Shown here: one piece after another, positions 33,135 to 50,919 of the stretch
Layout of the letters: every line of letters starts with the position of its first letter
Numbering within the stretch: position 1 is the stretch's first letter
Source: a virus
Strand: one strand, 5' to 3'
Virus record (IMG/VR): IMGVR_UViG_3300021197_001743
Coordinates: 56,039 to 120,038 of that record
Length of the DNA stretch: 64,000 nucleotides
Translations under genes and position numbers: made by a program
Notes under the pieces: generated by a model
Told to the model about the DNA's origin: nothing
Databases searched by the model: none
What the model saw: the letters and a program-made list of their open reading frames with translations, nothing else

Positions 33135-33998
33135 ATGAAGAACATAGTTGAAATATATAGCAAGTTTTGCAGAGACAAAGGAATAAAGTATCAGTTGGAC
33201 GATACTGTTTGTCCGTATGATAACACAACTCTCTTTTGCCCAGCAGGCATGCAACAGTTTAAAAAGAAGTTCAACTCGGAAGAAACGGGAACAGTCGCAA
33301 ATGTTCAATCTTGTATTAGAATGAACGACTTGGAAGAAATTGGTGATGGTACTCATTATCTTTATTTTGATATGATTGGGCTGTTCTCGTTTCGCTCTAT
33401 GTCCGTCCAGCAAGCAGTTGACTTCTGGATGGAATTCCTTGAAGATATTCTAGAGATAAAAGTCGACTACATAACAATACACCCAGACAAGCTCGAAGAG
33501 TGGAAAAGTCTTTATGATAACTACGATGTGGAGATCAGAGAAGATGAAGAGTGTAAATGGACAGACGGACAGATCGGAGGATACTGCACTGAGTTCTATA
33601 AGGATGACGTGGAGATTGGAAACATTGTCAATCCATTGGGCAATTGTATCGATGTTGGCTTCGGCTTACAAAGACTAAATATGTTTGTGAATGGAAGAAA
33701 CGAAGAGACCAAAGAAGAAATACTTGTTCTAACTTGTGAAAAGCTTTTATACTCTGGCTACTATCCAAGCAACAAGGAACAAGGGTATGTGTTCAGGAAA
33801 CTGTTGAGAGAGCTTTATAGAATTCAATCAACTTGGGATAACGAACACTATCAGAAAGAGAAAGAGCGCCAAGACAAAGTAATTAAGCGCTATAACAAAG
33901 ACAAAAATAAGGCCAAATATCAGGGTAAATCAAAAGAGTGGTGGTTCGACACCATGGGAGTTGATATTGACTTTATCGAGAGTATAGAAAATAAATAA
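33135..33998 (+). CDS. alaS: minimal alanyl-tRNA synthetase (aminoacylation and tRNA-recognition parts; no editing or C-Ala domain)
   Basis: DNTTLFCPAGMQQFK, VQSCIRMNDLEEIGDGTHYLYFDMIGLFSF, VEIGNIV, IDVGFGLQRL, PSNKEQGYVFRKLLR; ATG 33135 preferred over GTG 33102, which sits in a hairpin. Confidence 0.9.
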   Translation: MKNIVEIYSKFCRDKGIKYQLDDTVCPYDNTTLFCPAGMQQFKKKFNSEETGTVANVQSCIRMNDLEEIGDGTHYLYFDMIGLFSFRSMSVQQAVDFWMEFLEDILEIKVDYITIHPDKLEEWKSLYDNYDVEIREDEECKWTDGQIGGYCTEFYKDDVEIGNIVNPLGNCIDVGFGLQRLNMFVNGRNEETKEEILVLTCEKLLYSGYYPSNKEQGYVFRKLLRELYRIQSTWDNEHYQKEKERQDKVIKRYNKDKNKAKYQGKSKEWWFDTMGVDIDFIESIENK

Positions 33999-34007
33999 GG
34001 AGCAAGT

Positions 34008-34082
34008 ATGCATAACTACTTTTACATAGACCCAGATGATGATTATGACGATGATGACTGGGATTACGGCTACGATTTATAA
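34008..34082 (+). CDS. 24-aa acidic/aromatic micro-ORF (MHNYFYIDPDDDYDDDDWDYGYDL)
   Basis: AAGGAG RBS 5 nt before the ATG; fills the AlaRS-RecA gap; absent from the ORF track. Confidence 0.55.
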   Translation: MHNYFYIDPDDDYDDDDWDYGYDL

Positions 34083-34100
34083 ACAGTACTTAACAAGGAG

Positions 34101-35228
34101 GTGCCTTTGGGCAAAGTAATTAAAATGGCTACAAAACCGGGAAAAATAGACATCAGTGCAATGAAAAAATTCGTCAACAAAAAAGTTGGCATGGACGTTG
34201 CTCATGATCTTCGGGAAGACAATCCCACCGAAGTAAAACAATGGATCCCTACGGGATCTAGATGGCTTGACTCTATTACAGTTAGAGGAAAGTATGGCGG
34301 AATACCCGTCGGCAAGATTACTGAAATTGCAGGTTTGAGCTCTGCTGGTAAATCTTTTATGGCTGTGCAAATAGCCGCAAATGCTCAAAAAATGGGTCAA
34401 ACAGTTGTCTATTTCGACGCTGAAAGTGCTATTGACCCTGTTTTCTTAACTAATTCTGGTGTGGATATTGATGATAACTTTCTTTATGTGCAAGCGGTAT
34501 CAGTTGAGAAGACGTTAGAGACCATTGAGGACCTTTTGTCTGAATACTCAGAGACGCAATTCTTGTTTATTTGGGATAGTATTGCTGCTACCTCATCTGA
34601 GAAGGAAATAGAATCTGATTTCAATCCCCAATCCACAATGGCAGTTAAGCCTCGCATTTTCGCAAAGGCTTTTCCTAAACTAACAATCCCTCTCGCTAAT
34701 CAACAGTGTACTCTTGTGTTGATTAACCAGTTGAAAACCAATATCACAAGCAACATTGCAGAGAAATTTACGACACCTTACGTCGCCCCCGGCGGAAAGG
34801 CAATAGAATATTTTTGTTCAATGCGTGTTTGGCTAACGAAACGTAAAGCAAAGGCAGCATATGTTACTGATGATACTGGATTGAGGGTAGGCTCTGAGGT
34901 GAAGGTCAAGATTGAGAAATCTAGATTTGGAACTGAAGGTCGCACTTGTGGCTTCAAGATACTTTGGGGAGACAAAGTTGGAATACAAGATGAAGAGTCT
35001 TGGTTAGAGGCCATAAGACTATCTGGCACCGATAGATATCGAGTTGGTGGTGGTTGGTACTACCTCACTGACTCAAAAGGCAAGGAGCATAAGTTCCGAG
35101 CCTCTGAGTGGGTCTCAAAGCTCACTGATAAAAAGTTTCGTTCGTTAGTGTTCGAAATAATGGATGAAGAGATTATCAAAAAGTTTGATACTGAGGGTAA
35201 AAACTTCTCTATTGAAGATGATAAATAA
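34101..35228 (+). CDS. recA: RecA/UvsX recombinase
   Basis: WIPTGS..LD, GGIPVGKITEIAGLSSAGKS, FDAESAID, WDSIAA, INQL, PGGKAIEY; exact start (34101/34107/34125) uncertain. Confidence 0.93.
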   Translation: MPLGKVIKMATKPGKIDISAMKKFVNKKVGMDVAHDLREDNPTEVKQWIPTGSRWLDSITVRGKYGGIPVGKITEIAGLSSAGKSFMAVQIAANAQKMGQTVVYFDAESAIDPVFLTNSGVDIDDNFLYVQAVSVEKTLETIEDLLSEYSETQFLFIWDSIAATSSEKEIESDFNPQSTMAVKPRIFAKAFPKLTIPLANQQCTLVLINQLKTNITSNIAEKFTTPYVAPGGKAIEYFCSMRVWLTKRKAKAAYVTDDTGLRVGSEVKVKIEKSRFGTEGRTCGFKILWGDKVGIQDEESWLEAIRLSGTDRYRVGGGWYYLTDSKGKEHKFRASEWVSKLTDKKFRSLVFEIMDEEIIKKFDTEGKNFSIEDDK

Positions 35229-35258
35229 CTAATTATTTATAACATCGTTTTTCTCCTT

Positions 35259-35300
35259 ATGCCCCTTCCTGTTTTAATATGGGAAGGGGCATTTTTATTT
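35259..35300 (+). terminator. Rho-independent terminator
   Basis: ATGCCCCTTCC...GGAAGGGGCAT followed by TTTTATTT. Confidence 0.85.
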
Positions 35301-35338
35301 AAAATTTCTAATTAGAAACAAACAATAGGACAACAAAA

Positions 35339-36115
35339 ATGCAATTAACACCCAAAGCTTTACGTAAATTAATTCTAGAAGTCTTAAATGAAGGCTGGGC
35401 AATTACCAAATCTACCCGATTACCATCACAGGCATCAGGCGCTGGGTCTTTAAAAAAGCCAACATATATGGACACTCCAGAGAAAGCCGGCAAAGCATAT
35501 GAAGCCGTAAAGAAAGGGGTAAAACTAGAAGGTTGGGATCTCTATGCACAACTGGTAGCAGAAGCTTACAAAGCAGCCCCTAAAGAAAACCCTGAGGGAC
35601 TTAAAGGATACGACATATTTAAGGATCATATTTTAAGTCTATACCCTAAAGTGTCTTCTACATATGATGTTTCGTTTGTAGACAAGCAGCCATACGACAC
35701 TGGCGAGGAAATGGGTCAAAAAGTTAAAGACACAGGCGACCTAGAAATCTCAACACAGTTTCTACAATCTGATGATGATGAAGAAAGGATGTTAAATCTT
35801 AAGAACCGTGCTGTTCATGATTATTTCGGCCATCTCAAAGCAAGGGGACACGAAAAGCAAGGGGTTAATGCTAATTTTACTCTCCTAGGAGAGATCAAGT
35901 CCTTTAATAACCAAGCTAAAATGATACCACCAGAGGGAGTTCCTTTTCTGTTCTCAATATTGGTAGGTCAAGCAGCACATTATAATTACTATGGGTATTT
36001 CCCAGAGTTTAAGGCCACTACGTTAGATGATTTTAATCCATTCCGCCTTGGCGAAGTAAAGGGTTATAAAATAACAAAAGATAATAATTTGGAAAAGACA
36101 AATGAGACTGACTGA
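35339..36115 (+). CDS. hypothetical protein with shared N-terminal leader and RAVHDYFGH motif
   Basis: MQLTPKALRKLILEVLNE leader; TCTAATTA motif at 35307. Confidence 0.65.
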   Translation: MQLTPKALRKLILEVLNEGWAITKSTRLPSQASGAGSLKKPTYMDTPEKAGKAYEAVKKGVKLEGWDLYAQLVAEAYKAAPKENPEGLKGYDIFKDHILSLYPKVSSTYDVSFVDKQPYDTGEEMGQKVKDTGDLEISTQFLQSDDDEERMLNLKNRAVHDYFGHLKARGHEKQGVNANFTLLGEIKSFNNQAKMIPPEGVPFLFSILVGQAAHYNYYGYFPEFKATTLDDFNPFRLGEVKGYKITKDNNLEKTNETD

Positions 36116-36812
36116 AGATAAATTAAAAAAAATAATTTTAGAAATACTCGAGGAAGAACAGGATGTTAAGGGGACCTACTTCACATCTTTAAATATGCTC
36201 GATGATGGTGCATTGGAAGAAGCAGAAGAATTAGAAGTAATGGTTTCAACTCCAACTGCTCCAAATGAGGAAGTAATACAGGCTTTTATGGATGGTATAG
36301 AAGAAAACCCAAGATCGGAATTCATAACCAAACTTTCTTATGATCAATTGAGAAGCAGGAAACTAGTAATAACCCTAGATAAAATGACAGGAATGGCCAC
36401 AGAACAAAATGGACATATGGGTACCGGCTGGAACAACAAGGAAGGTCATGGCGGCCGCTTAATGAACTTGATGCACTATTCTCGAGACAATCTAGGCGGA
36501 AAAACAGGTGATCACTTAGACGGCAGACTTTCCAGTGTTTATCGAAATATGGGCCTAGATAAGGTTTATAAAATAATTGATTGGGATGATGCCTACGCTC
36601 CAAAAAACTGGAACTATAGGCCGATTGATATTTTCGATCCCAAATGGTCTGCGTATGCAGATGGCTTCAGTAAAGCAAATTATCAACGTGGCAATTTGCC
36701 GAACAAAATAGTTTCAATAAATACAGAAGGCTTGACAGTAGATATCAACCCCTATGAGAAAGCCGTCCAGTATTCAAATGGGATGCCAGACATAATTTTT
36801 AGAAGATTTTAA
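36102..36812 (+). CDS. hypothetical protein with shared leader, possible GNAT-like domain
   Basis: MRLTEDKLKKIILEILEE leader; GG..DHLDG.L..VYRNMG...WDDAYAPKNWNY...PDIIF. Confidence 0.6.
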   Translation: MRLTEDKLKKIILEILEEEQDVKGTYFTSLNMLDDGALEEAEELEVMVSTPTAPNEEVIQAFMDGIEENPRSEFITKLSYDQLRSRKLVITLDKMTGMATEQNGHMGTGWNNKEGHGGRLMNLMHYSRDNLGGKTGDHLDGRLSSVYRNMGLDKVYKIIDWDDAYAPKNWNYRPIDIFDPKWSAYADGFSKANYQRGNLPNKIVSINTEGLTVDINPYEKAVQYSNGMPDIIFRRF

Positions 36813-36822
36813 TTAAAATTAT

Positions 36823-36851
36823 TTGACAAGTTGTTCATAGTACGTTATATT
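36823..36851 (+). promoter_or_regulatory. sigma70-like promoter
   Basis: TTGACA-N17-TATATT. Confidence 0.8.
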
Positions 36852-36874
36852 ATAAGTATAATACAGAGGACAAG

Positions 36875-37030
36875 ATGAAAAAAATATTAATTAAACACAA
36901 GGATATCCAATTTGTGGGATATCTAATAGAAGACAAAGAGACAAAATTTATTGCTCTCAACGAAACAAAGGTGGTAACTTGGCATTATCCAAAAGCATCA
37001 TATTCTTATAAAACACTGGAGGAAAAATGA
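36875..37030 (+). CDS. 51-aa hypothetical protein
   Basis: GAGGA RBS after the promoter; ATGA overlap with the next gene. Confidence 0.55.
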   Translation: MKKILIKHKDIQFVGYLIEDKETKFIALNETKVVTWHYPKASYSYKTLEEK

Positions 37031-37977
37031 AAAAAGTATTATTGATTGATGGACTCAACATGTTCATCCGAAGCTATATAGTGAACCCTACTTTAGATAG
37101 ACATGGCAACCCAATCGGAGGTTGTATAGGATTTCTAAAATCACTTCAAAAGGTATGTAGGAAATTTGATCCTCAAGAAGTCATTGTGGCTTGGGATGGA
37201 CACGAAGGCTCTCAGCGCAAGAGAGCACTCAACAAGGAATACAAAGAAGGTAGAAGTCCTATACGGTTCAACCGGAGACTGATTGAGCTAGACCCCGCAG
37301 AGCAAGTAAAAAACAAAGCCTATCAACTAATCAGATTGATGGAATATCTAAACGAATTACCAATTATTCAAATCACAATTGATTTTGTTGAAGCTGATGA
37401 TGTAATCGCTTACGGTGTACAACACCCTTATTACAAAGATTGGGGCAAGGTGATTGTATCATCCGATAAAGACTTTTTTCAACTCTGTGATGATCGCACA
37501 TCTATCTACCGACCTATCCAAGATAAGATTGTTACAAAACAAAGTATTCTTGATGAGTTTAAGATTCATCCCAATAATTTTGCCCTTGCTCGAGCAATTG
37601 CTGGGGACTCATCCGATAATCTTCCGGGTGTAGCTGGGATTGGACTTAAAACGGTTGCTAAAAGATTCCCATTTTTACTTAAAGAAGAAGAATCAAGTTG
37701 TGATAAAATCATTACAAATTGCAACATGCAAACAAAAAAGCTTAAATTACATCAAAACTTGTTAGAATCAGCTGATTTGATCAAAAACAATTACAGGATT
37801 ATGCAATTGTATTCTCCTAACATAGGGGTGGTAAATAGGATATTTATTGACAACACAATACGAGATTTCGAAGCAGAATATTCGAAAATAAATTTCACTA
37901 AGATGTTGTTTTCGGATGATTGCTCATACATCAAATTTGATGAACTTACCAGAATAATGAAAAATATAAAAAGATAA
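37027..37977 (+). CDS. 5'-3' exonuclease/flap endonuclease (Pol I N-terminal / T4 RNase H-like)
   Basis: LLIDGLNMFIR, AWDG, EYKEGR, EADDVI, SSDKDFFQL, GDSSDNLPGV.GIG.KT. Confidence 0.92.
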   Translation: MKKVLLIDGLNMFIRSYIVNPTLDRHGNPIGGCIGFLKSLQKVCRKFDPQEVIVAWDGHEGSQRKRALNKEYKEGRSPIRFNRRLIELDPAEQVKNKAYQLIRLMEYLNELPIIQITIDFVEADDVIAYGVQHPYYKDWGKVIVSSDKDFFQLCDDRTSIYRPIQDKIVTKQSILDEFKIHPNNFALARAIAGDSSDNLPGVAGIGLKTVAKRFPFLLKEEESSCDKIITNCNMQTKKLKLHQNLLESADLIKNNYRIMQLYSPNIGVVNRIFIDNTIRDFEAEYSKINFTKMLFSDDCSYIKFDELTRIMKNIKR

Positions 37978-37985
37978 AATATGAC

Positions 37986-38014
37986 TTGACTTGTTGACAC
38001 AAACAGGTTATATT
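37986..38014 (+). promoter_or_regulatory. sigma70-like promoter
   Basis: TTGACT-N17-TATATT. Confidence 0.7.
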
Positions 38015-38036
38015 TATATAACACCATGGAGGACAC

Positions 38037-39395
38037 ATGACTATTAATAACGACCACGAAACTTTTTTACGCTTTGGAAAAAAATTCCAAGAAAATATGT
38101 GCCAACTTATGTTGGAAGATAGACCATTCTTTGACCAAATATCGGAGGTATTAAGAGTTGAATTTTTTGAACTCAAATACCTGCAGATTTTTGCAGATAC
38201 ATTAATAAAATACAGATCTAAATACAATACACACCCAAATCATGAAGTCATGATGGCAATACTCAGGACTGAGTTGAACCACTGCGACGATGCTGCAGCA
38301 ACACAAGTAAGAAATTACTTTGCAAGGATCATGAAATCAGAAGGTGTAGAAGAGTCAGAATATGTTAAGGATAAATCTTTAGATTTCTGTCGCAAGCAGG
38401 TTCTTAAGGGAGCAATGATGAAATCAATAAAACTTATCAAGTCTTCATCATTCGATGAGATTGAAAAGGTGATTCAGGAAGCTTTAAAATTAGGAACAGA
38501 TAACAACTTTGGGCACAATTATCACATAGACGCTCTTAAACGCTTTGAATTGATTAATCGTGCTCCAATTTCTACCGGTTGGGATCGAATGGACGAGATT
38601 GTTAAGGGTGGATTAGGTAAAAGTGAATTGGGCGTTGTTATCGCTCCAACAGGAGCCGGTAAATCTATGGTCCTTGTACACCTTGCAGCGCAAGCCCTTA
38701 AACAAGGCAAGACCGTAGTATATTACACTTTGGAATTAAAAGATACTGTGGTTGGTGGAAGATTTGACTCTTGTCTAAGTGGAATACCATTAAACGAACT
38801 CAGAGATCGCAAAGAAGAGGTTCTGGACCACATTGAGACGGTTGATGGTACACTTATTATTAAAGAGTATCCAACCAAATCAGCTTCTGTTCAAACAATA
38901 AAAAATCATATCGAGAAATTAAAGAAAAGAGGAATATATCCGGATATGGTGTTGTGTGATTACGCTGACCTCCTTCGTCCTTCGCGAAGTTCAAGCGAGA
39001 AGCGACATGAATTAGAGGAGACATATGAAGGTCTCCGAGCATTAGCTCAAATATATGAAATACCAGTGTGGACAGCTTCACAAACTAACAGAAGTGGACT
39101 GAATGCCGAGGTAATTACAATGGAAGCCATATCAGAGGCTTTTAACAAATGTTTCGTTGCGGATTTCATCTTCTCGCTGTCCCGAACAGTTCAGGATAAA
39201 GCAGCTAATAAAGGAAGATTATTCGTAGCTAAAAATAGAAATGGCCCAGACGGTTTAGTGTTCCCTACTTTTGTCGATTGGTCTGATGTTACAATCAAAG
39301 TGTTAAATAGGGAAGATAATGATATCGAGATGCCTTCTGCAAAGGATGCTCTCGAAACTCTTAGAAGAAAATATAATGAATTGAATGCGAAATAA
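38037..39395 (+). CDS. replicative helicase, DnaB/T4 gp41-like
   Basis: ISTGW..MD...GGL, APTGAGKS, YTLEL, DYADLL, WTASQTNR, AKNRNGP. Confidence 0.93.
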   Translation: MTINNDHETFLRFGKKFQENMCQLMLEDRPFFDQISEVLRVEFFELKYLQIFADTLIKYRSKYNTHPNHEVMMAILRTELNHCDDAAATQVRNYFARIMKSEGVEESEYVKDKSLDFCRKQVLKGAMMKSIKLIKSSSFDEIEKVIQEALKLGTDNNFGHNYHIDALKRFELINRAPISTGWDRMDEIVKGGLGKSELGVVIAPTGAGKSMVLVHLAAQALKQGKTVVYYTLELKDTVVGGRFDSCLSGIPLNELRDRKEEVLDHIETVDGTLIIKEYPTKSASVQTIKNHIEKLKKRGIYPDMVLCDYADLLRPSRSSSEKRHELEETYEGLRALAQIYEIPVWTASQTNRSGLNAEVITMEAISEAFNKCFVADFIFSLSRTVQDKAANKGRLFVAKNRNGPDGLVFPTFVDWSDVTIKVLNREDNDIEMPSAKDALETLRRKYNELNAK

Positions 39396-39405
39396 GGGAA
39401 ATATT

Positions 39406-41262
39406 ATGAATTTAGAAAATAAAATTTTATCAGATGTAACAGTATACATGAAGTATGCTAGGTATTTAGAAGATCAAAATCGACGCGAGAACTGGGAAGA
39501 GTTGGTTTCTCGGAACATGGATATGCATATAAAAAAATTCCCATCTTTAGATAGGGAAATAAGAAGCGCGTATCAATATGTCTTCCAGAAGAAAGTTCTT
39601 CCTTCCATGAGAAGCATGCAGTTTGGAGGTAAACCAATTGAAGTATCTCCAAATAGAATTTTCAATTGTGCATATGCGCCTGTTGATAATTATCATGTGT
39701 TTTCTGAGATTATGTTTCTCCTCCTAGGAGGAACTGGTGTCGGATTTTCCGTCCAACACCACCATGTAGACAAGCTACCAGAAATAAGAAAGCCTTCAGC
39801 AAGAAGTCGAAGATTTCTTATTGGAGACTCAATTGAGGGTTGGGCAGACTCTATTAAGGCTCTAGTGGCTTCGTATTTTAAAGGCACTTCTCGACTACGT
39901 TTTGACTTCTCGGATATCCGTCCGAAAGGATCCAGACTAGTTACCTCCGGAGGTAAAGCTCCCGGACCTCAGCCCTTGAAAGAATGCTTAGTAAAAATTG
40001 AAGGAATATTAGATGAAAAAGAAGACGGCTCCCAACTTACTCCCATTGAAGTTCATGACATCGTCTGTTATATTGCGGACGCGGTTTTGGCTGGGGGTAT
40101 TCGTAGGGCTGCGCTCATATCTTTGTTCTCTGCTGATGACGAAGAGATGCTCGCTGCCAAAACAGGCGACTGGTGGGAACTTAACCCGCAAAGAGGAAGG
40201 GCAAACAATTCTGTTGTTCTTATGCGTCATCGCATCGATCGTGATACTTTTATGGGTATCTGGCAGCGTGTTCGCGAGTCAGGAGCAGGGGAACCCGGGT
40301 TTTACTTCTCCAACGACAAAGATTGGGGAACCAATCCCTGCTGTGAAATAGGCTTGAGGCCATATCAATTTTGCAATCTTGTTGAAGTCAATGTGAGCGA
40401 CATAAGCAATCAGGAAGAATTAGAAGAAAGAGTGGCCGCTGCAACGTTCATAGGTACCCTTCAAGCGTCTTACACGGACTTCCACTACCTAAGACCTATC
40501 TGGCAAAGAAACACTGAAAAGGATGCCCTTATTGGCGTTTCTATGACTGGTATTGCATCTGGTGGAGTACTTGGTTTGGATTTAACTACTGCTTCGTTGG
40601 TTGTTAAGAGAGAAAATAGAAGAATAGCAATGCAAATTGGAATCAAACCAGCAGCAAGAACAACCTGTGTAAAACCAGCAGGAACAACATCCTTGACCCT
40701 CGGAACATCTTCCGGAATTCATGCGTGGCATAACGACCATTATGTACGCAGAATTCGCGTAGGAAAGAACGAGGCGATCTATTCTTATCTTAAAGAAAAC
40801 ATCCCAGAGCTTATTGAAGATGATAAATTCCGACCGCACGATACGGCACTTATTAAAGTCCCACAAAAAGCTCCACAAGGGGCCATAACACGCCACGAGA
40901 GCGCTTTGGATCTCTTAAGAAGGGTAAAGGGTATTAGTGATACTTGGATCAAAGGAGGGCACCAAAGCGGGAACAACACGCACAATGTGTCTGCTACCAT
41001 CACTGTCAAGCCAAACGAATGGAAATCAGTTGGCGAGTGGATGTGGTTAAATCGCAAGTGCTACAATGGATTGTCTGTGTTGCCCCATTCAGAACACACA
41101 TATGTCCAAGCTCCTTTTACCGATTGCACGAAAGAAGAGTACGAATCTTTATTACAATCGGTAAAAAGAATAGATTTGGACCTAATTATAGAAGATCAAG
41201 ATGAAACAAATTTGTCCGGAGAAATAGCGTGTGCCGGTGGATCATCCTGTGAAATATTTTAG
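39406..41262 (+). CDS. nrdJ: class II (B12-dependent) ribonucleotide reductase
   Basis: LPSMRSMQFGG, FNCAY, GTGVGFS, TNPCCEIGL, CVKPAGTTS, C-terminal ACAGGSSCEI; no adjacent beta subunit. Confidence 0.92.
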   Translation: MNLENKILSDVTVYMKYARYLEDQNRRENWEELVSRNMDMHIKKFPSLDREIRSAYQYVFQKKVLPSMRSMQFGGKPIEVSPNRIFNCAYAPVDNYHVFSEIMFLLLGGTGVGFSVQHHHVDKLPEIRKPSARSRRFLIGDSIEGWADSIKALVASYFKGTSRLRFDFSDIRPKGSRLVTSGGKAPGPQPLKECLVKIEGILDEKEDGSQLTPIEVHDIVCYIADAVLAGGIRRAALISLFSADDEEMLAAKTGDWWELNPQRGRANNSVVLMRHRIDRDTFMGIWQRVRESGAGEPGFYFSNDKDWGTNPCCEIGLRPYQFCNLVEVNVSDISNQEELEERVAAATFIGTLQASYTDFHYLRPIWQRNTEKDALIGVSMTGIASGGVLGLDLTTASLVVKRENRRIAMQIGIKPAARTTCVKPAGTTSLTLGTSSGIHAWHNDHYVRRIRVGKNEAIYSYLKENIPELIEDDKFRPHDTALIKVPQKAPQGAITRHESALDLLRRVKGISDTWIKGGHQSGNNTHNVSATITVKPNEWKSVGEWMWLNRKCYNGLSVLPHSEHTYVQAPFTDCTKEEYESLLQSVKRIDLDLIIEDQDETNLSGEIACAGGSSCEIF

Positions 41263-41271
41263 GAGAATAAT

Positions 41272-41460
41272 ATGAGAGAACGACTCGAAATTATAATTGA
41301 AGAACTCAAAAGTGCAATGAGTGATATCGACAAAGTGGAATCCGGTACCTATGGCTATAAAGCTGCAGCACCGAGAGCCCGAAAGGTTGCTTTAACTGCT
41401 ATAAAAGAACTGAAAGAATTGAGATCAGAAATACAAAATAAGAAAAATTCTCACGAATAA
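41272..41460 (+). CDS. histone H1-like (Hc1-type) small basic protein
   Basis: G.KAAA.RARK....IKELKELRSEIQNKK pattern. Confidence 0.6.
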   Translation: MRERLEIIIEELKSAMSDIDKVESGTYGYKAAAPRARKVALTAIKELKELRSEIQNKKNSHE

Positions 41461-43291: not shown

Positions 43292-43511
43292 AGAAGGAGA
43301 CATATTTTTTCTCAACGAAGAAGGGGTAATGCTGTTTAAGCATATTCAAGGTGAGAATGGAATTATAATAAACGGACCTTATGCTTTATATCGACATGAT
43401 TTCCATGGAACTCCAGAGACAATTGAATATGCTGGATATGATATTTTAATTAAGGGAAGATTGTTCAAGGAAATACCAGAGAAGTTCCTAAAAAGAGTTG
43501 TAAAAATTTGA
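43284..43511 (+). CDS. small SH3/KOW-like protein
   Basis: FEEGDIF...GIII; overlaps the thyX stop. Confidence 0.5.
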   Translation: MFEEGDIFFLNEEGVMLFKHIQGENGIIINGPYALYRHDFHGTPETIEYAGYDILIKGRLFKEIPEKFLKRVVKI

Positions 43512-43526
43512 ATAGACGGAGAATAA

Positions 43527-44324: not shown

Positions 44325-45205
44325 CCGGCATTGTTCCCGTTGCTGGTCAACCATTAGATTTTGACCAAGCTTGGCCTGACTGCTTGATGCCTATAGCTCC
44401 GGACTATTCTTTGTTAGAAGCCGCCGTTGCTGAGTGCGCTTATGCTGGATGTGATACGATTTGGATTATCTGCAATGATGACATTTCTCCCCTAATAAAA
44501 AAGAAACTTGGAGACTTTGTGAAGGACCCAGTTTATGCCCATCGCCGGCACGAGAGAAAGCCCGATCAGACCATCCGTTACATCCCAATTTATTATGTGC
44601 CGATACATCCCAAAGACAGAGACAAAAGAGATTGCCTAGCTTGGTCTGTCATTCATGGATCACTCTCAATTTTTAAAATTGCTGATGAGATTTCCAAATG
44701 GGTGATCCCCAATAAGTACTACGTCAGCTTCCCGTATGGCTTCTATCCTTCTTGGCAAATTCGAGAGCATAGAAAATTAATTTCTTCATCAAAGAACTTT
44801 TATATCTCATCCAAAGGAAAAACATTTAAGGACGGCCTTTATTCCTCCTTTACTTTTGGTAAGGATGAGTTTATAGAGTTCAGAAAAATCATAAGATCAG
44901 GAACGGGAAGGTTCCGCCCCGGAGCAGACTGGAAAGAGCATGATGCGTTGCCAATTGAGGAAAGGTGGTCTGCAAGATTTTTTCCAATTGAAAAAGTGTT
45001 TGCTCCTTTTAATCTAGATGCAGCAAACGAAATAAAAATAGAAAATTTTTGGAACATATCTTCATGGCAAGAGTACAAATCGTTCATATCAGATAATGTT
45101 GACAAAGAAATAAAACGCCCTACAAAGACCATCCTCACGAGACAAAAGTGTAAACCGATCGCAGTGAACTATTTAGAAAGCGATGAAAAAGATAAAGAAG
45201 CTTAA
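44282..45205 (+). CDS. sugar-phosphate nucleotidyltransferase-like protein (divergent)
   Basis: LAGIVPVAG...PDCLMPI....LLE..V.E...AGCD.I.II resembles the RmlA/GalU N-terminus. Confidence 0.6.
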   Translation: MEVTRENNTTYFHLAGIVPVAGQPLDFDQAWPDCLMPIAPDYSLLEAAVAECAYAGCDTIWIICNDDISPLIKKKLGDFVKDPVYAHRRHERKPDQTIRYIPIYYVPIHPKDRDKRDCLAWSVIHGSLSIFKIADEISKWVIPNKYYVSFPYGFYPSWQIREHRKLISSSKNFYISSKGKTFKDGLYSSFTFGKDEFIEFRKIIRSGTGRFRPGADWKEHDALPIEERWSARFFPIEKVFAPFNLDAANEIKIENFWNISSWQEYKSFISDNVDKEIKRPTKTILTRQKCKPIAVNYLESDEKDKEA

Positions 45206-45794
45206 ATTTAAAAAACTGTTGAACGAATACAGGTCTCTCTATTATGAATATGAATATATTCTAGAGGCATGTCAAGAAACGTTGTCTGATTTTGACGACA
45301 ATCTAAGGAATTATTGCGAAAAAAACGATATCAATATTGAAGAATTAAATAAAAAATTATCACCCAAGAAACAGCAAGAAACAGACATGGTCCCTTTTGA
45401 AGATGAATGTCTCGAGATTTCAAAGAGCTCAGAAGACGAAGAGTATGATGCAAAAAAATTATTTCGACAAGTAGCAAGAGCGTTCCATCCGGATATGCTC
45501 AATGACGAAGATCCAGATAAATTAGAAAAAGAAGAGATATTTAAAAGAGCCTCGGTTGCAATCGAAAACAAAAATTGGGGCGAACTCTTCAATATTGCAG
45601 ACCGCTATGATCTGGATCTTGATGATTATATATCAGTTAATAATTCTTTAAGGCTGGACATCCAAAGAATGAAAGAGAAAATAAAAGAGAAGCAAGGCAC
45701 CTACTCTTGGCTATTATATACATGCGAAGATAACGTAGAGTGTATGGATAGAGTCGCTAAATCGTTTCTAGAACAGATGTATAATTATAAATAA
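45183..45794 (+). CDS. J-domain-containing protein
   Basis: KKLFRQVARAFHPD...EEIFK with HPD motif. Confidence 0.7.
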   Translation: MKKIKKLKFKKLLNEYRSLYYEYEYILEACQETLSDFDDNLRNYCEKNDINIEELNKKLSPKKQQETDMVPFEDECLEISKSSEDEEYDAKKLFRQVARAFHPDMLNDEDPDKLEKEEIFKRASVAIENKNWGELFNIADRYDLDLDDYISVNNSLRLDIQRMKEKIKEKQGTYSWLLYTCEDNVECMDRVAKSFLEQMYNYK

Positions 45795-45838
45795 TATTTT
45801 TAGATAGCTTCGATCTTATCGAGACTAGTTAAGATACT

Positions 45839-46267
45839 ATGGCAAGAATTTTATTCATTGATGATAACCCAGATCAGTTTCGTATGATACTAGATACGTT
45901 AGAATTTATAATTGATGATCTGGATATTGAGTATTCAAATAGCGTAAGTGATGCAATAAAGAAAATGTGCGAAAAAGAATATGATGTGGTTATTATGGAT
46001 ATTTTTTTACCGCTCGGAACAAACTCTCAATCTATTGTCGGACCAAAAAATAAATTATATAAAGACTTAGATGCCTCGCACCTAGGAGGCTTAGAAGTAT
46101 TAGACTTCCTTGAGAAGATGCAAGATCACCCTAAAGTGTTAATGCATACAGCTAGTCTAGACAGCATGCTGATCGAAATGTTCAGCGATATATCAGAGTA
46201 TCGAATCCCTAAACCCTGCCCACCAGAGGTTTTTATAAGTAAAGTATCCGAGGCTTTATGTAAATAA
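45839..46267 (+). CDS. stand-alone response-regulator receiver domain
   Basis: ILFIDDN, YDVVIMDIFLP, GLEVL, VLMHTA, IPKP; ACTAGTTA motif at 45824. Confidence 0.85.
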   Translation: MARILFIDDNPDQFRMILDTLEFIIDDLDIEYSNSVSDAIKKMCEKEYDVVIMDIFLPLGTNSQSIVGPKNKLYKDLDASHLGGLEVLDFLEKMQDHPKVLMHTASLDSMLIEMFSDISEYRIPKPCPPEVFISKVSEALCK

Positions 46268-46286
46268 AGACTAATTATATACGTAT

Positions 46287-46362
46287 GGGGGTATAGCTCA
46301 GTTGGGAGAGCGTCTGCCTTGCACGCAGAAGGTCGTGAGTTCGATCCTCGCTACCTCCACCA
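46287..46362 (+). tRNA. tRNA-Ala(UGC)
   Basis: GGGGGTA/TACCTCC acceptor stem with G3:U70; TCTGC-CT-TGC-AC-GCAGA; GTTCGAT; encoded CCA. Confidence 0.96.
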
Positions 46363-46370
46363 TATATCTA

Positions 46371-46390
46371 AAACCTCCTTCGGGAGGTTT
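46371..46390 (+). terminator. cUUCGg hairpin between the two tRNAs (terminator or processing site)
   Basis: AAACCTCC-TTCG-GGAGGTTT. Confidence 0.6.
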
Positions 46391-46426
46391 AGTATTGTCT
46401 TGACTTACTATATAAAATAGACTGAT

Positions 46427-46501
46427 GGTGCTGTAGTTCAGTTGGTTTAGAATGCCGGCCTGTCACGCCGGAGGTCGCGGGTTCGAGTCCCGTCAGCACC
46501 G
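46427..46501 (+). tRNA. tRNA-Asp(GUC), CCA not encoded
   Basis: GGTGCTG/CAGCACC stem; CCGGC-CT-GTC-AC-GCCGG; GTTCGAG; discriminator G followed by TCA. Confidence 0.95.
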
Positions 46502-46529
46502 TCAACCTTAAACACTCAAGGAGCATTAT

Positions 46530-47051
46530 ATGAGAATAGATCACATTGCATATCGTGTAGCAGACAGAAATAAAACAGCACAATTCTTCATTGATGCCTT
46601 CAATTATCGGATAGCTGATGAATTCGAAATTCAATTTGACGATGGAAGTTGCGCTCAATGCTATGCCCTTTCTCCACCAGAAAGACTAGATGGTACTTCT
46701 TTTAAAGCTTGGACAATGTTTGGAGAATCTGAATATCATTCCCCACCAGAAATCTTTGTTTCTCAAGGCTCAGCTGGATCCATTGTTGATAAGTGGGTAA
46801 AAGAGCGCAATTCCGTTGGAGGAGTTCACCATATAGCATATCAAGTTGATGATGTTGAAGAGACTATGAAAGATTGGAAAGACAAAGGTTGGGCAGAATT
46901 CACAACAGACCAACCCATCGTGGCTGACGGGCTATCCCAGTGCTTTACAAAGCCTCACATGTTAACTGGAGTAGTTTACGAATTTATATTCAGAACCAAA
47001 AAAGGTTTTAATGTAGACAGTGTACGAGATTTGATGGTGAGCACTAATTAG
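46530..47051 (+). CDS. VOC-fold protein resembling the catalytic C-terminal half of 4-hydroxyphenylpyruvate dioxygenase
   Basis: IDHIAY, GVHHIAYQVDDV, QCFTKP, YEFIFR..GF: His/His/Glu triad. Confidence 0.7.
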   Translation: MRIDHIAYRVADRNKTAQFFIDAFNYRIADEFEIQFDDGSCAQCYALSPPERLDGTSFKAWTMFGESEYHSPPEIFVSQGSAGSIVDKWVKERNSVGGVHHIAYQVDDVEETMKDWKDKGWAEFTTDQPIVADGLSQCFTKPHMLTGVVYEFIFRTKKGFNVDSVRDLMVSTN

Positions 47052-47077
47052 TTATAAAATGGACACTGATTACTATT

Positions 47078-47488
47078 ATGAGCAACTTCAGATATACAAT
47101 GGGCCTAGGCCATGTTCCTTCGTTCCAAACATCTGCAAGGCCGTACTTAACTTCATCTTTGACAGTGCCGGCAGTATCAGCCGAGCCAATCGAAATATCT
47201 TTTGAAACGGTTAGTAGATTTATTATAATAACCAACACACTCGATGGTTCTGCTACAAACGTTCCTCTCCGCTTTGGATTTTCAGCTGATGGTGTGAAGG
47301 GATCAATTAATAATAATTATGCAATTCTCAACAATGGGGAAAGCTTTGAAGCCGATCTTAAAGTTACAAAAATCTTTTTATTGAGTAATTCGGTTAATGA
47401 GTGCACCGCTTCGGTTATTGCAGGCCTGACTGGTATAGGCTCTAGATATTTAATTAACAATTGGTCAGGTTCAATAGGAGTAGGATAA
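47078..47488 (+). CDS. putative virion protein, paralog family 4/4
   Basis: YTMGLGHVPSFQTSARPY...F.TVSRFIIITN...ES....LKV.KIFL; ACTAATTA at 47043. Confidence 0.65.
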   Translation: MSNFRYTMGLGHVPSFQTSARPYLTSSLTVPAVSAEPIEISFETVSRFIIITNTLDGSATNVPLRFGFSADGVKGSINNNYAILNNGESFEADLKVTKIFLLSNSVNECTASVIAGLTGIGSRYLINNWSGSIGVG

Positions 47489-49017
47489 TGGGATTTACAG
47501 ATTTAAACAAACCTAGCAAAACTTTAGGGGCCAATGATGTTAATATAAAAAGTCCTAACTCAACCTTTGGTGAAATATTAACAACTACCCTTGAGCCTCT
47601 TGCTCAAGGTGATTTCATTCACAATATCAACGGTCAGATTTTTACAACATCAACGTTCTCCGGTGGCTCAATAACTACTGTCTCCGGCAACGCAGAACTC
47701 TCAAGTGGCACCAGTGCATCAGGTTCTTCTACAGTTCAATTGAGAAGGCGGCTTGAGTATAGACCCGGACAAGGCTCTCTTATGAGAGCAACAGCGATTT
47801 TCGATACTCCAGATGCAGGAAACGCTCAGTTTGTAGGTGCTGGAACTTCCGAGTGTGGTTATTTTATTGGCTATTTTGCCGGCTTCTTTGGGATCTTGCA
47901 TTCTGAAACAGGAGCAAGAGAGGTAAGAAAATACACGGTATCAGCTGGCGAAGGAACTGAGAGTGTAACTGTAACATTAGATGGATCTTCTGTTGTTGTC
48001 CCAGTTTCCGGAGGCGCTGATACTTCTCAAACAGCATATCAGCTTTCACTCGGTGATTATTCACAAGTTGGCAAGGGCGGCTGGCTAGCTGATGCACAAG
48101 GCAGTAGTGTGTTCTTTATCGCGGCACGAGCCAATGCGACTTCAACAGGTGCGTATTCTATCACCTCCGGAGGGAGCATCGACGGTTCTTTTACACGAGA
48201 GCAAATCGGCGAGGCCCAAACAAACACATTTATAACTTCCGGCTCATTCAATGTAGACAAGCTAGACGGAACAGGTCCATCTGGATTTACAATAAACCCA
48301 CAAAAAGGAAACGTGTATCAAATTGGATATCAGTACCTTGGGTATGGCAATGCTATTTTTGGAGTTGAAAATCCTGAAACAGGAAAAAATACTCCCTGTC
48401 ATGTGCTAAAGAACCCTAACACAAGAACAACCCCAGTCTTAAAAGATCCAAACCTATCAGTCTTAGCTACGTCAGCAAATATTGGAGGCACCACAAGTAA
48501 GGTAATAAAAACAGCATCCATGGCAGCCTTCACGGAAGGAAAAGTCATGAAGTTAGATCCAAAGTTTTCCAAGAGCTTCTCCTTCTCTAGTTTTTCTGAG
48601 CAAACATATTCTCCATTAGCTATATTCAAATCAAATCGCTTTTTTGATGGTCGTAGTAGTTTTGGCGAGTTTGATATAATGAGAATTAATGGTTCGAATG
48701 AATCCACAACAAAGACTTTAACTGTCGGCTTCTTCTTGAATGCGGAGATCAACGGAGATGTAGACTTTCAATACGTAAATGAGCAAGAGAGTATAGTATC
48801 CGTCGCTTCGTTAGATCCTGACAGTGATACAATTGTAGATCTAGCATCACAGCAACCATTTCATGAATTTGTTATTGGGCCACTAACAGGTCTTTCTGAG
48901 AACTTAGAGGATTTAAAATTTGTCTTTGGTCCCGGAAGCAATTTCGTTATTGCGATAAAAGTTTCATCTGGAAACATTACCGGACAAGTTGGCGTTAATT
49001 GGTTTGAGCAACAATAA
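47488..49017 (+). CDS. putative virion structural protein (beta-rich)
   Basis: TAATG coupling (ATG 47488); Ser/Thr/Gly-rich; YRPGQG, NVDKLDGTGPSG, YQYLGYG. Confidence 0.6.
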   Translation: MGFTDLNKPSKTLGANDVNIKSPNSTFGEILTTTLEPLAQGDFIHNINGQIFTTSTFSGGSITTVSGNAELSSGTSASGSSTVQLRRRLEYRPGQGSLMRATAIFDTPDAGNAQFVGAGTSECGYFIGYFAGFFGILHSETGAREVRKYTVSAGEGTESVTVTLDGSSVVVPVSGGADTSQTAYQLSLGDYSQVGKGGWLADAQGSSVFFIAARANATSTGAYSITSGGSIDGSFTREQIGEAQTNTFITSGSFNVDKLDGTGPSGFTINPQKGNVYQIGYQYLGYGNAIFGVENPETGKNTPCHVLKNPNTRTTPVLKDPNLSVLATSANIGGTTSKVIKTASMAAFTEGKVMKLDPKFSKSFSFSSFSEQTYSPLAIFKSNRFFDGRSSFGEFDIMRINGSNESTTKTLTVGFFLNAEINGDVDFQYVNEQESIVSVASLDPDSDTIVDLASQQPFHEFVIGPLTGLSENLEDLKFVFGPGSNFVIAIKVSSGNITGQVGVNWFEQQ

Positions 49018-49022
49018 AAAAC

Positions 49023-49051
49023 TTGACAAACTATCTTGAGCATGTTATATT
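49023..49051 (+). promoter_or_regulatory. sigma70-like promoter of the tmRNA
   Basis: TTGACA-N17-TATATT, 13 nt before the tmRNA 5' end. Confidence 0.8.
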
Positions 49052-49064
49052 ATAATTATAATAA

Positions 49065-49396
49065 GGGCTCGCAATGGCTTCGACGGGTTAGAATCAAGGG
49101 GAGAGTGCATGCAGGCGTGAATCAGCCTTAATCGTTCAAATTTTTATAAACGCAAACAATAATTTGTTTTTCGACGAAGTCGCTTTAGCGGCTTAATCGG
49201 GTGGTCGCCTCGAACCATCTATCCAAGAGAGGCAAAACAACAGGACAGTTGTAAAAATCACATCTCCTTCGGCCACGGACTATGGAGAATAAAACGCAGT
49301 GGATACCTCGCTAGGAGGGAAATAACTAGACAAGCATGTGAATGACTCAAACTAAGACTAGCGCGGACAGGGGTTCGATTCCCCTCGAGTCCACCA
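49065..49396 (+). ncRNA. ssrA: tmRNA, tag (A)ANNNLFFDEVALAA
   Basis: 5' GGGCTCG..GGCTTCGACGG; 3' AGGGGTTCGATTCCCCT-CGAGTCC-ACCA with G3:U70; ATAAAC-GCA resume codon at 49152; tag ORF ends ALAA-TAA at 49196. Confidence 0.95.
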
Positions 49397-49410
49397 CTTT
49401 GGAGGAAAAA

Positions 49411-49575
49411 ATGAAATTATTACAAAACAAATGGACAAGCTTTGCATGTGCTTGTCTGAATGCATTTGCAGCTGCAATGTGTCTTATTGATGGTAAAACA
49501 AACATGTTCGTGATGTGCACAGTCTTTGCTGTGTGGTGTGGTTATAACTTTGTTAATCAAATGGAGGAAAAATGA
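49411..49575 (+). CDS. small Cys-rich two-TM membrane protein
   Basis: GGAGG RBS; ATG 49411 (track start 49342 lies inside the tmRNA). Confidence 0.6.
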   Translation: MKLLQNKWTSFACACLNAFAAAMCLIDGKTNMFVMCTVFAVWCGYNFVNQMEEK

Positions 49576-49739
49576 AAAATTTATTAAATATGAAATGGTT
49601 CACATTCTTATGTTGTGCCTTTAATTTAGCAGTGGCTGCCGCTGCTATCAAAACAGGAGACTGGGGTCTATTTGTAGCCTGCTCTCTTTTTGCTGGAGTA
49701 ACAGGATTTAGTTTCTGGCAACAAATGGGGGAAGAATGA
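49572..49739 (+). CDS. small Cys-rich two-TM membrane protein, paralog of the previous ORF
   Basis: MKNLLNMKWFTFLCCAFNLAVAAAAIKTGDWGLFVACSLFAGVTGFSFWQQMGEE; ATGA overlaps at both ends; absent from the track. Confidence 0.6.
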   Translation: MKNLLNMKWFTFLCCAFNLAVAAAAIKTGDWGLFVACSLFAGVTGFSFWQQMGEE

Positions 49740-50620
49740 GATATCTATTACCTTTTCTTCTGTCCTGTACAGAAGTGTCTATCAACAAAATACCAAATGA
49801 GCCAAGCGACTCCGCGGTTGTAATTGTAGACACCACAGAACCATCGTCAGAGCCAGCCGTAGAGCCCTCTGTAGAGCCTATGGAAGGCATCGGAGGGTAT
49901 GTACACTACTATCTTCAACAAGTGGCGTGTCCGGCTTGTATGGGCGAAGCAAATGAGATAACTGTTGAGATGAATGCTAGATTTCATGAGCCAATTAATG
50001 ATTCATATACATCTTGGATTGTCCCGCAGGGCCAATGCACACAAAATTTAACTCAAACAGTTCCCTCTGTGCCGTTAATGGACAAAGGATCGGAAATTAA
50101 AACAAGAGCAGACGGGAATATCTTATTTGCATACAGAACATCGCAGAATAGCTATTACAACTCTTGGAATACAGACATATATTATACTCGTGATGCTGTA
50201 CACTACATATCCGAGGAGAACAATTACGAATTTGCTTCTTTTACATCGCTCCATGGGTTTGATTCAATCGAACCTTATGAATTACGATATGTGGACCCAG
50301 CTTATGCCTTCTCAGCCAAGATTTACAGATCGGGTCCTACCTTTTGGTGGTCTCCCAACGGCTCAAATAGCATGTTCACGATAACACTGGCAGTATACAC
50401 ACCAGATGGCTCTTCTTTACTGGGTTATGTTGCTTGCTCAAGCGGAGACACAGGGATGATGACTATCCCGGGACAATATCTAGAAACTTATCCTTATTGG
50501 TCACTAGTTGCAGTACACATGACAAGACACAAGATTGAATTGGTTCCTTGGGTAGAACAGAACACTTATATCGAGACACACATGGAGTGGTCAGTTATCG
50601 GCACAGGTCATATAGAATGA
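49736..50620 (+). CDS. putative lipoprotein
   Basis: MRYLLPFLLSC lipobox-like start; EPSSEPAVEPSVEP linker; CPAC. Confidence 0.65.
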   Translation: MRYLLPFLLSCTEVSINKIPNEPSDSAVVIVDTTEPSSEPAVEPSVEPMEGIGGYVHYYLQQVACPACMGEANEITVEMNARFHEPINDSYTSWIVPQGQCTQNLTQTVPSVPLMDKGSEIKTRADGNILFAYRTSQNSYYNSWNTDIYYTRDAVHYISEENNYEFASFTSLHGFDSIEPYELRYVDPAYAFSAKIYRSGPTFWWSPNGSNSMFTITLAVYTPDGSSLLGYVACSSGDTGMMTIPGQYLETYPYWSLVAVHMTRHKIELVPWVEQNTYIETHMEWSVIGTGHIE

Positions 50621-50919
50621 CCAAGAAACAAAAAGACATATTAATCAAGGACCGGCAGAAGATCGATCGACCTAAAAAATACAAGGTTGTTTTCTACAAT
50701 GACGACTTTACTCCGATGGATTTTGTCACTTTGCTTTTGATGAACGTATTTAATAAAGGAAAGCAAGAAGCGCAAAGTATAATGATGCAGGTTCACAAGC
50801 AAGGAAAGGGGATAGCAGGTGTCTACTCAAAACAAATCGCTGAAACTAAAATCGAAACAGCAAAAATGTATGCAATCGATGCCGGCCACCCTCTGCATGC
50901 AGAAGCCGAACCAGAATAA
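50617..50919 (+). CDS. clpS: ATP-dependent Clp protease adaptor
   Basis: PKKYKVVFYNDDFTPMDFV, MMQVHKQGKGIAGVY...IAETK, HPL; ATG 50617. Confidence 0.95.
   Translation: MTKKQKDILIKDRQKIDRPKKYKVVFYNDDFTPMDFVTLLLMNVFNKGKQEAQSIMMQVHKQGKGIAGVYSKQIAETKIETAKMYAIDAGHPLHAEAEPE

Follow-up and report, generated by a model that had tools for sequence, protein, structure and literature searches.

A mini alanyl-tRNA synthetase, tRNA-Ala, tmRNA and ClpS in a marine phage: probably separately inherited accessory cassettes

We wondered whether an alanyl-tRNA synthetase, an alanine tRNA, a transfer-messenger RNA (tmRNA) and ClpS, all encoded by one virus, form a single alanine circuit. The four genes lie in the last 64 kb of the 120,038-bp IMG/VR virus record IMGVR_UViG_3300021197_001743 (positions 56,039 to 120,038 of the record, ~66% complete by CheckV; we call this whole stretch of 64,000 nucleotides the window and number it from 1). 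A preliminary description had proposed that a mini alanyl-tRNA synthetase (AlaRS) charges both the tRNA-Ala and the tmRNA, which share the G3:U70 alanine identity pair, and that the phage runs a charging, rescue and degradation loop independent of its host. The genes are real, but we consider another reading of them more probable, at about two chances in three: the genes in the window form three accessory cassettes, each inherited on its own within a marine myovirus lineage (~180-190 kb), and not a co-evolved alanine circuit. Comparison with relatives shows what appear to be independent cassettes and no conserved circuit. The novel element of the locus is the family of ~290-aa AlaRS proteins to which the synthetase belongs.

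The mini-AlaRS homologue is encoded on the + strand at 33102-33998. It is an ordinary open frame that can start at GTG 33102, giving 298 aa, or at ATG 33135, giving 287 aa, and the shorter form is the commoner one among relatives. The protein matches Pfam tRNA-synt_2c (PF01411) with 74.9 bits against a cut-off of 30.3, although the match covers only profile positions 3-130 of 552, and it falls well short of the cut-off for the full-length alaS equivalog (TIGR00344, 74.1 bits, cut-off 457). A phmmer search of PDB sequences matched four successive pieces of it to catalytic fragments of bacterial AlaRS. Three of them align to A. aeolicus AlaRS (3htz/1riq), namely motifs 1-2 (residues 15-143), the helix with PSN..GYV (217-241) and that with DT.G (269-295); the motif 3 piece (172-201) aligns to AlaRS entry 9jdn in a stretch below threshold. 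The residues of AlaRS reported to read U70 and G3 of the identity pair are an Asn and an Asp, N303 and D400 in E. coli (PMC10036535). Asn224 of the PSN..GYV motif and Asp283 of the DT.G motif align with the same motifs of A. aeolicus AlaRS, and their equivalence to N303 and D400 is one of motif, not residue by residue.

An AlphaFold (AF2) model built from 50 homologues has a mean predicted local distance difference test score (pLDDT) of 88.6 and a predicted template modelling score (pTM) of 0.83. Its top Foldseek matches are AlaRS catalytic fragments (best E 5e-16, TM 0.72-0.74), and superposition with VIA onto such fragments gives Z of 23-24 and root-mean-square deviations (rmsd) of 3.7-4.4 over 283-288 residues. 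Model residues 10-298 superpose on residues 1-416 of the E. coli AlaRS fragment (Z 23.9), whereas the control folds GlyRS-alpha, HisRS and PylRS reach Z of 15.6 or less. The protein is built of the catalytic core and a shortened tRNA-recognition domain, with no editing or C-Ala domain; the tRNA_SAD editing domain was not found anywhere in the contig.

The class II active-site core is retained. In an alignment of the family, R73, D184, G186, N174 and E164 are kept in 50 of 50 members and Asp283 in 48; Asn224 is kept in 38, and nine have Pro at that position. The family is large: of 1350 candidates of 163-522 aa, 1006 match at E<=1e-3, and the best 120 measure 248-304 aa. In an all-against-all library, E<=1e-30 is reached by 49 clusters at 50% identity. 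The viral contigs that bear members, marine ones and others, range from 4 kb to 657 kb. A search for longer forms returned a 608-aa AlaRS of 25% identity as its sole match, and no close longer form. With tblastn against 50,697 phage records, 14 records were matched, at least 80% of the query being covered only in one 634,780-bp uncultured phage, and our literature searches, supplementary tables aside, met no phage AlaRS of ~290 aa. An AlaRS of ~287 aa had already been described at 33135-33998, and we read it as a real, selected and internally shortened AlaRS aminoacylation domain. It is probably an active alanine-tRNA ligase, free of editing and confined to reading the acceptor stem; we infer this by analogy, since the larger, 461-aa mini-AlaRS of Tupanvirus has published activity.

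The candidate substrates are encoded further along the window. ARAGORN finds just three RNA genes in the full contig of 120,038 bp, all on the + strand of the window: tRNA-Ala(UGC) at 46287-46362 (Rfam 68.2 bits), tRNA-Asp(GUC) at 46426-46503 (Rfam 71.6 bits), which the preliminary description had overlooked, and a one-piece tmRNA (ssrA) at 49065-49396. The tmRNA matches RF00023 over its full length (1-374 of 374; 90.4 bits, gathering score 47), and ARAGORN reads its tag as ANNNLFFDEVALAA, in a frame closed by a stop. As had been noted, both the tRNA-Ala and the tmRNA carry G3:U70 and an encoded CCA; read directly, both have G1-C72, G2-C71, G3:U70 and A73 before it. In an alignment of eight lineage tmRNAs, the G3:U pair is present in 8/8 and compensatory changes, including some in the acceptor and T stems, affect 17 of 59 predicted pairs. 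The sigma-70-like promoter that had been described for the tmRNA is borne out as a predicted element, by consensus match only: TTGACA-17-TATATT with a TG-extended -10, at 49023-49051 (+), ends 13 nt 5' of the tmRNA and matches the consensus at 11 of 12 positions. Promoter-like sites are not enriched across the region, where 18 were found against 14.4 +/- 4.5 in shuffles. A blastn search of the tmRNA against the 50,697 phage records gave no match. A GC-rich terminator-like hairpin lies between the two tRNA genes at 46371-46390, and for this reason they may be separate transcription units.

Whether the synthetase and its candidate substrates are inherited together can be judged from the relatives of this phage. 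We took 80 IMG/VR loci, the best 80 of 387 matches, whose ribonucleotide reductase (RNR) is 71-88% identical to that of the window; RNR has the AlaRS on one side and the RNA genes on the other, so that its 10-kb flanks cover all the sites in question. Whole records were searched for 27 of the 80, namely all contigs of at least 28 kb plus L134, L152 and L200 (L numbers denote loci and G numbers records). The gene order of the lineage runs RecA, exonuclease, DnaB, RNR, thymidylate synthase, a 203-aa gene, a variable slot and a 294-aa gene, after which ClpS follows in about half of the loci examined. AlaRS is present in 1 of the 36 loci that cover its site. The 22 loci that cover the slot contain tmRNA in 6 cases, tRNA-Ala in 2 and ClpS in 6. 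Sixteen loci cover both sites: five have tmRNA and none has AlaRS, so none has both. The preliminary description had staked the circuit on co-occurrence among relatives, and what the lineage displays is largely the independent distribution that would speak against it.

Whole records give the same picture. AlaRS occurs in 1 of 27 (G002, which lacks tmRNA); tmRNA is over the cut-off in 9 of 27 and is present in a tenth, where it is cut off at the contig end (10/27), and none of these records has AlaRS. The permuted-tmRNA model RF04321 also matches the 5' half of one-piece tmRNAs, and within the RNR set it brought new evidence only for G050. G048, a 187-kb genome rated 100% complete, has tmRNA and ClpS; it lacks AlaRS and SmpB, and tRNA-Ala gives no match there at E<=1e-11. 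The 58.9-kb record G052 (L144) has a tRNA-Ala that is identical in the alignment and a tmRNA with the same tag peptide, and no AlaRS. In the other direction, the closest AlaRS-bearing relative, G001 (84 kb, syntenic, AlaRS 80% identical), has AlaRS, tRNA-Ala and ClpS and no tmRNA by either Rfam model, and no tmRNA was found in G001-G005, the five close records of 30 kb or more that bear AlaRS. The position of the synthetase also varies: it lies upstream of recA in the window (33102-35228) and between recA and the exonuclease gene in L130 (G001) and L150, a switch of side that suggests a mobile cassette or a local rearrangement. A second marker, the 518-aa virion protein encoded just upstream of the tmRNA, returned 20 loci, of which one has tmRNA, and no tRNA-Ala, ClpS or AlaRS was found in their flanks.

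The RNA genes themselves sit in a conserved, hypervariable insertion hotspot near the 203-aa and 294-aa genes. The left flank (45183-45794, +) encodes the 203-aa protein, assigned by synteny with loci L135, L133, L141, L144, L152, L137, L164 and L177 and with G001; its Pfam DnaJ match (20.9 bits) is below the cut-off of 27.8. The right flank (49736-50620, +) encodes the 294-aa phage protein, likewise placed by synteny; it has no Pfam or PHROG match, and its atlas neighbours are viral hypothetical proteins of no assigned function. Between the two, the slot holds tmRNA alone in L133 and L141, tmRNA with tRNA-Gly in L134, L135 and L137, and tmRNA with tRNA-Ala in L144 and L152. The tRNA-Ala of L164 and G001 is found just after the 294-aa gene, outside the slot, and still further downstream of that gene are a tRNA-Lys in L164 and a tRNA-Met in L177.

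Other genes share the slot. In the window it also contains receiver-domain, glyoxalase-like and virion-protein genes. A 142-aa protein encoded just 5' of the tRNA-Ala (45839-46267) contains half of a response-regulator receiver domain (Pfam 40.8 bits), and such a half-domain protein likewise stands just upstream of the tRNA-Ala in L144 (L144:18167). Adjoining the 3' side of the tmRNA are two tandem paralogous open reading frames (ORFs) for small hydrophobic, putative membrane proteins of 54 and 55 aa (49411-49739, +, from their translations), with homologues after the tmRNA in L133, L135, L137, L141 and L144. The stop of the first overlaps the start of the second by 4 nt, the stop of the second overlaps the start of the 294-aa gene by another 4 nt, and the stop of the latter overlaps the start of ClpS.

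ClpS is encoded at 50617-50919 (+, ATG 50617), 1.2 kb downstream of the tmRNA, where it had been placed before. It matches PF02617 with 102.8 bits (cut-off 23), scores 107.2 against the best NCBIfam equivalog, just under the cut-off of 112, and aligns over its full length with the solved structures 3dnj and 3o2b; the NDD[F/Y]TPM and VH residues of the N-degron pocket are conserved. ClpS is a fairly stable backbone gene of the lineage, and it occurs with and without tmRNA: nine of the 27 whole records have ClpS, six with tmRNA and three without. Records with ClpS and no tmRNA are G001, G057, G061 and G069, and those with tmRNA and no ClpS are G059 and G060. As the four ORFs 3' of the tmRNA, through ClpS, overlap start to stop and no terminator-like site was seen on the + strand from the tmRNA to the ClpS stop, co-transcription of tmRNA and ClpS from the tmRNA promoter is possible.

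The remaining parts of a self-sufficient loop were not found in the contig. SmpB (PF01668) had not been seen in the window; with the search extended to the 120-kb contig and the 27 relatives (0/27, the complete genome included), it was not found either. ClpP (PF00574) and the ClpA N-domain (PF02861) were not found in the ~66%-complete contig. Because the contig lacks all three, rescue and degradation would depend on host factors, and the proposed independence from the host does not hold. The role given to ClpS in degrading tmRNA-tagged proteins fails as well: ClpS is an adaptor of ClpAP for N-degron substrates and is reported to inhibit the degradation of ssrA-tagged proteins by ClpAP (PMC8666677), so it is not an adaptor for tmRNA-tagged products, and it also occurs in relatives without tmRNA.

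We therefore favour three cassettes with separate histories. The first would be the mini-AlaRS beside recA. As a reader of the acceptor stem alone, it would raise the capacity of the infected cell to alanylate any RNA with G3:U70; its substrates would be the host tRNA-Ala and the phage tRNA-Ala, with tmRNA charged as a by-product. The second would be the hypervariable hotspot, here filled with tRNA-Ala, tRNA-Asp and tmRNA. The phage tmRNA would use host SmpB to rescue stalled ribosomes, and its tag, which ends in ALAA, would be expected to be recognised by host ClpXP or ClpAP. The third is ClpS, the backbone gene just downstream of the hotspot, which should redirect host ClpAP to N-degron substrates and away from ssrA-tagged ones.

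The broader family of AlaRS-bearing phages offers a second view of these associations. A profile scan gave 76 loci, and 45 of the 47 contigs of at least 30 kb were searched as whole records. For tRNA-Ala we built a covariance model from 25 phage tRNA-Ala genes, having dropped 5 of 29 distinct ARAGORN tRNA-Ala calls that had no clean acceptor stem or no G3:U70; its 70-bit line is specific, not fully sensitive. By this measure 19 of the 45 records have a tRNA-Ala at 70 bits or more, and ARAGORN alone adds two (21/45). The eight records that are at least 90% complete have tmRNA in four, tRNA-Ala in four, SmpB in two and ClpS in two. AlaRS, tRNA-Ala and tmRNA come together in three complete genomes, all of them huge phages of 482-608 kb.

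Proximity was assessed in the same set. In 15 of the 76 loci a tRNA-Ala falls inside the flank fetched around AlaRS (up to 10 kb). Any tRNA at all is present in 28 of the 76; the nearest one is an Ala tRNA in 6, against 4.6 expected when labels are shuffled within each locus (P=0.28), a result that gives no support for adjacency of AlaRS and tRNA-Ala beyond membership of tRNA islands. Among the 215 tRNAs within 10 kb of a mini-AlaRS (L003-L078), those reading GNN codons dominate (34 Glu, 31 Ala, 17 Gly, 17 Asp). An 88-nt tRNA called Ala(AGC) by ARAGORN, with T3-A70 and not G3:U70, lies 0.6-1.3 kb from the mini-AlaRS in three loci (L061:8567-8654, L063:9338-9425 and L068:9338-9425). On the 7-kb contig of L047 the mini-AlaRS is the centre of a tRNA array with mirror-image copies on the two strands (L047:1699-5340), probably a palindromic assembly artefact.

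Permuted, two-piece tmRNAs were searched for with RF04321, which added four further tmRNA records. We had considered whether the permuted tmRNA calls in L033 and L034 were false positives, since RF00023 gives them only ~17 bits, but RF04321 scores them at 64-67 bits and that suspicion was set aside. These tmRNAs (L033:11104-11409 and L034:11102-11407) lie ~0.3 kb 3' of the mini-AlaRS and overlap ARAGORN calls of flanking tRNA-Glu and tRNA-Ser genes. Outside the 45 records, ARAGORN finds a tmRNA on the small contig behind L074, 1.9 kb from the AlaRS.

Several observations weigh against the reading as separate cassettes. AlaRS is the only aminoacyl-tRNA synthetase (aaRS) in the contig among the five Pfam aaRS families searched: PF00152, PF00587, PF00133 and PF00749 have no match, which extends to the contig an earlier statement about the window and fits a special role for alanine. 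Among the 45 AlaRS records, tmRNA is over the cut-off in 9 (3 one-piece, 6 permuted), compared with a published 2.3% of phage genomes that are not matched in size. In G011 and G012 a permuted tmRNA lies ~0.3 kb downstream of AlaRS and a tRNA-Ala 0.9-2.4 kb upstream, and in G072 the distance between AlaRS and tmRNA is 1.9 kb. There may be a weak enrichment of tmRNA with AlaRS, in a comparison that is unmatched. Moreover, most relatives are fragments, 6-49% complete, and for this reason absences are weaker than presences.

The strongest alternative built on these observations is a facultative module, in which the mini-AlaRS is selected mainly to keep tmRNA and tRNA-Ala of the phage charged during a shortage or shut-off of host AlaRS; the three genes would then work as a unit in this phage. 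Beyond the shared G3:U70 logic of the three genes and the absence of a second synthetase, this alternative can point to AlaRS-tmRNA distances of 0.3-2 kb in two other lineages and of up to 10.4 kb in a third (G036), and to the Ala tRNAs in 15/76 flanks and among the neighbouring tRNAs (31/215). However, the close AlaRS-tmRNA pairs sit inside tRNA islands, and the nearest tRNA is Ala hardly more often than in shuffles. Within the lineage, 0 of 16 syntenic relatives have both genes, ten tmRNA-bearing relatives lack AlaRS, and the close AlaRS relatives G001-G005 lack tmRNA; among the eight near-complete AlaRS genomes, four are without tmRNA and four without a tRNA-Ala match; and SmpB is absent from the contig and the 27 relatives searched. 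The crude rate of tmRNA is no higher with AlaRS (9/45) than in AlaRS-negative relatives (10/26); because the two sets are not matched, we claim neither enrichment nor depletion.

Of the alanine circuit as first proposed, the logic of one enzyme and two G3:U70 substrates stands, as does the nearness of AlaRS to tmRNA in three other groups, but the independent distribution within the lineage does not agree with it. We regard a unit of this kind as unlikely. An optional synergy of AlaRS and tmRNA, a weaker claim than a circuit, seems to us similarly doubtful. So does the fullest form of the idea, in which the ~290-aa phage AlaRS would be the smallest working AlaRS and an optional, modular alanine supply, charging every G3:U70 RNA and, in phages that also have tmRNA (this one and at least three other groups with the two genes 0.3-10 kb apart), sustaining trans-translation and alanine decoding when host AlaRS falls; we offer it only tentatively.

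A second alternative is a role outside translation. The mini-AlaRS might supply Ala-AMP or Ala-tRNA to a non-ribosomal reaction, or it might bind RNAs with G3:U70 or serve them as a decoy. In favour of this, its score is well short of what the alaS equivalog requires (74.1 bits, cut-off 457), just 38 of 50 family members retain the Asn that reads U70, AlaRS is found in complete genomes without a detectable tRNA-Ala, and a tRNA-dependent non-ribosomal transfer has been reported for a phage protein, Mu Mom with Gly-tRNA (PMC13219725). Against this, the active-site residues (R73, D184, G186 and others) are invariant in 50/50 and Asp283 is kept in 48/50, which argues for conserved aminoacylation chemistry and reading of the acceptor stem, and the 461-aa Tupanvirus mini-AlaRS, without the Asn and the Asp, is reported to charge tRNA-Ala and to rescue yeast (PMC10036535). 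No evident partner transferase lies beside AlaRS, whose neighbours vary between relatives. We hold this role to be improbable.

A functional pair of tmRNA and ClpS, by which the phage would tag proteins and ClpS would shield them from host ClpAP or reprogramme ClpAP, is in our view very improbable. In its favour, five relatives (L133, L134, L135, L137 and L141) share the succession of tmRNA, small ORFs, 294-aa gene and ClpS, the four ORFs overlap with no + strand terminator-like site up to the ClpS stop, and ClpS is reported to inhibit ClpAP on ssrA substrates (PMC8666677). Against it, all linked cases belong to one sub-lineage and may therefore be a single event, each gene occurs without the other in relatives, and in more distant phages both are present in only 2 (G006 and G025) of 23 AlaRS-set records searched.

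PHROG and Pfam matches show that the phage is a myovirus, with a T4-type major head protein, tail sheath, DnaB, RecA, ribonucleotide reductase and thymidylate synthase; its large DNA polymerase matches phrog_405. The closest cultured relatives by capsid are Flavobacterium, Microcystis and Rhodothermus phages (41-50% identity), and a scan of genome contigs with ClpS, made in search of a host, gave two matches only, in metagenome-assembled genomes of Balneolia at 43-47% identity. Taken by itself, the codon usage of the phage is unremarkable: Ala makes up 6.8% of the codons, 41% of them GCT and 33% GCA.

The stretch from the tRNAs to ClpS recurs, whole or in part, in marine metagenomes. With two possible source runs set aside, near-identical DNA was detected, at least in part, in 20 of 24 listed marine metagenome runs from 12 studies, and 12 runs carry at least half of the words of the stretch. 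An independent 5.5-kb metagenome contig bridges 46466-50997, which shows that assembly did not create the arrangement. In one metatranscriptome run (X20), short contigs with no more than one difference fall on 49088-49288, within the tmRNA, and likewise on 47820-48042, 48883-49033 and 50176-50340; DNA carry-over is possible for all of them, and contigs cannot show transcription.

If the mini-AlaRS is active, ~290 residues suffice to read G3:U70 and to charge tRNA. A cellular AlaRS is about three times as long, and the 461-aa Tupanvirus enzyme is also well above this size; such an activity, if true, would be useful for studies of aaRS evolution and for minimal translation systems. The locus also presents aaRS, tRNAs, tmRNA and ClpS as translation and proteostasis helpers that appear to be swapped as independent cassettes at defined hotspots, from which it follows that their co-residence in one genome should not be taken for a pathway unless comparisons support it. 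That tmRNA and ClpS recur side by side within one marine lineage offers a small lead on the handling of tagged proteins by phages.

Much of this inventory has precedents in known systems. Among the papers listed, our literature searches met no report of a phage alanyl-tRNA synthetase together with tmRNA, or of a phage-encoded ClpS together with tmRNA. Phages that carry aaRS, tRNAs, tmRNA and SmpB have been published (PMC7162821), and in these huge phages such genes have been proposed to support or redirect host translation; the phage described here resembles them in gene content but is mid-sized, with a single aaRS, two tRNAs and no SmpB in its 120-kb contig. ClpS of jumbo phages has been proposed to bring targets to host ClpAP (PMC7824862), as may apply here, but in our phage a tmRNA precedes ClpS by 1.2 kb in an apparent single operon.

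Phage tmRNAs are likewise on record, in 402 of 18,146 phage genomes according to PMC9004378. Like the mycobacteriophage Bxz1 group and Bacillus phage G (PMC4131195) and the Melnitz-type phages (PMC9004378), the present phage is large and lytic-looking and carries a full ssrA with no SmpB in the contig. In such lineages tmRNA is common and not defining, being reported in 17 of 47 Melnitz-like contigs (PMC9004378) and found here in 10 of 27 relatives. The marine tmRNAs of Melnitz type are described as two-piece, whereas this marine phage has a one-piece tmRNA; only 2.5% of one-piece phage tmRNAs are reported to be marine (PMC9004378).

For the synthetase, the closest structural comparison is with bacterial AlaRS fragments (E. 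coli 441 aa, 3hxu/3hxz; A. aeolicus 1riq). Foldseek matches these with E of 5e-16 to 2e-14 and TM (query) of 0.65-0.74, VIA superposes 284-286 residues with Z of 23.5-23.9, and the class II, PSN..GYV and DT.G motifs align. Identity is 21-26%, however, the phage protein has ~130 residues fewer, and its recognition domain has a Lys-rich helix in place of the middle of the bacterial one. The bacterial fragments are engineered truncations, whereas the phage AlaRS is a natural stand-alone gene.

The closest natural counterpart is TuAlaRS of Tupanvirus (461 aa, PMC10036535), also a viral AlaRS reported to consist of catalytic and tRNA-recognition domains with no editing or C-Ala domain, from a virus that likewise encodes G3:U70 tRNA-Ala genes. 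The phage protein, at 287-298 aa, is ~165 residues shorter and has internal deletions. TuAlaRS is described as lacking the Asn and the Asp that the phage copy keeps, and nine of the 50 family members share with TuAlaRS a Pro at the position of the Asn.

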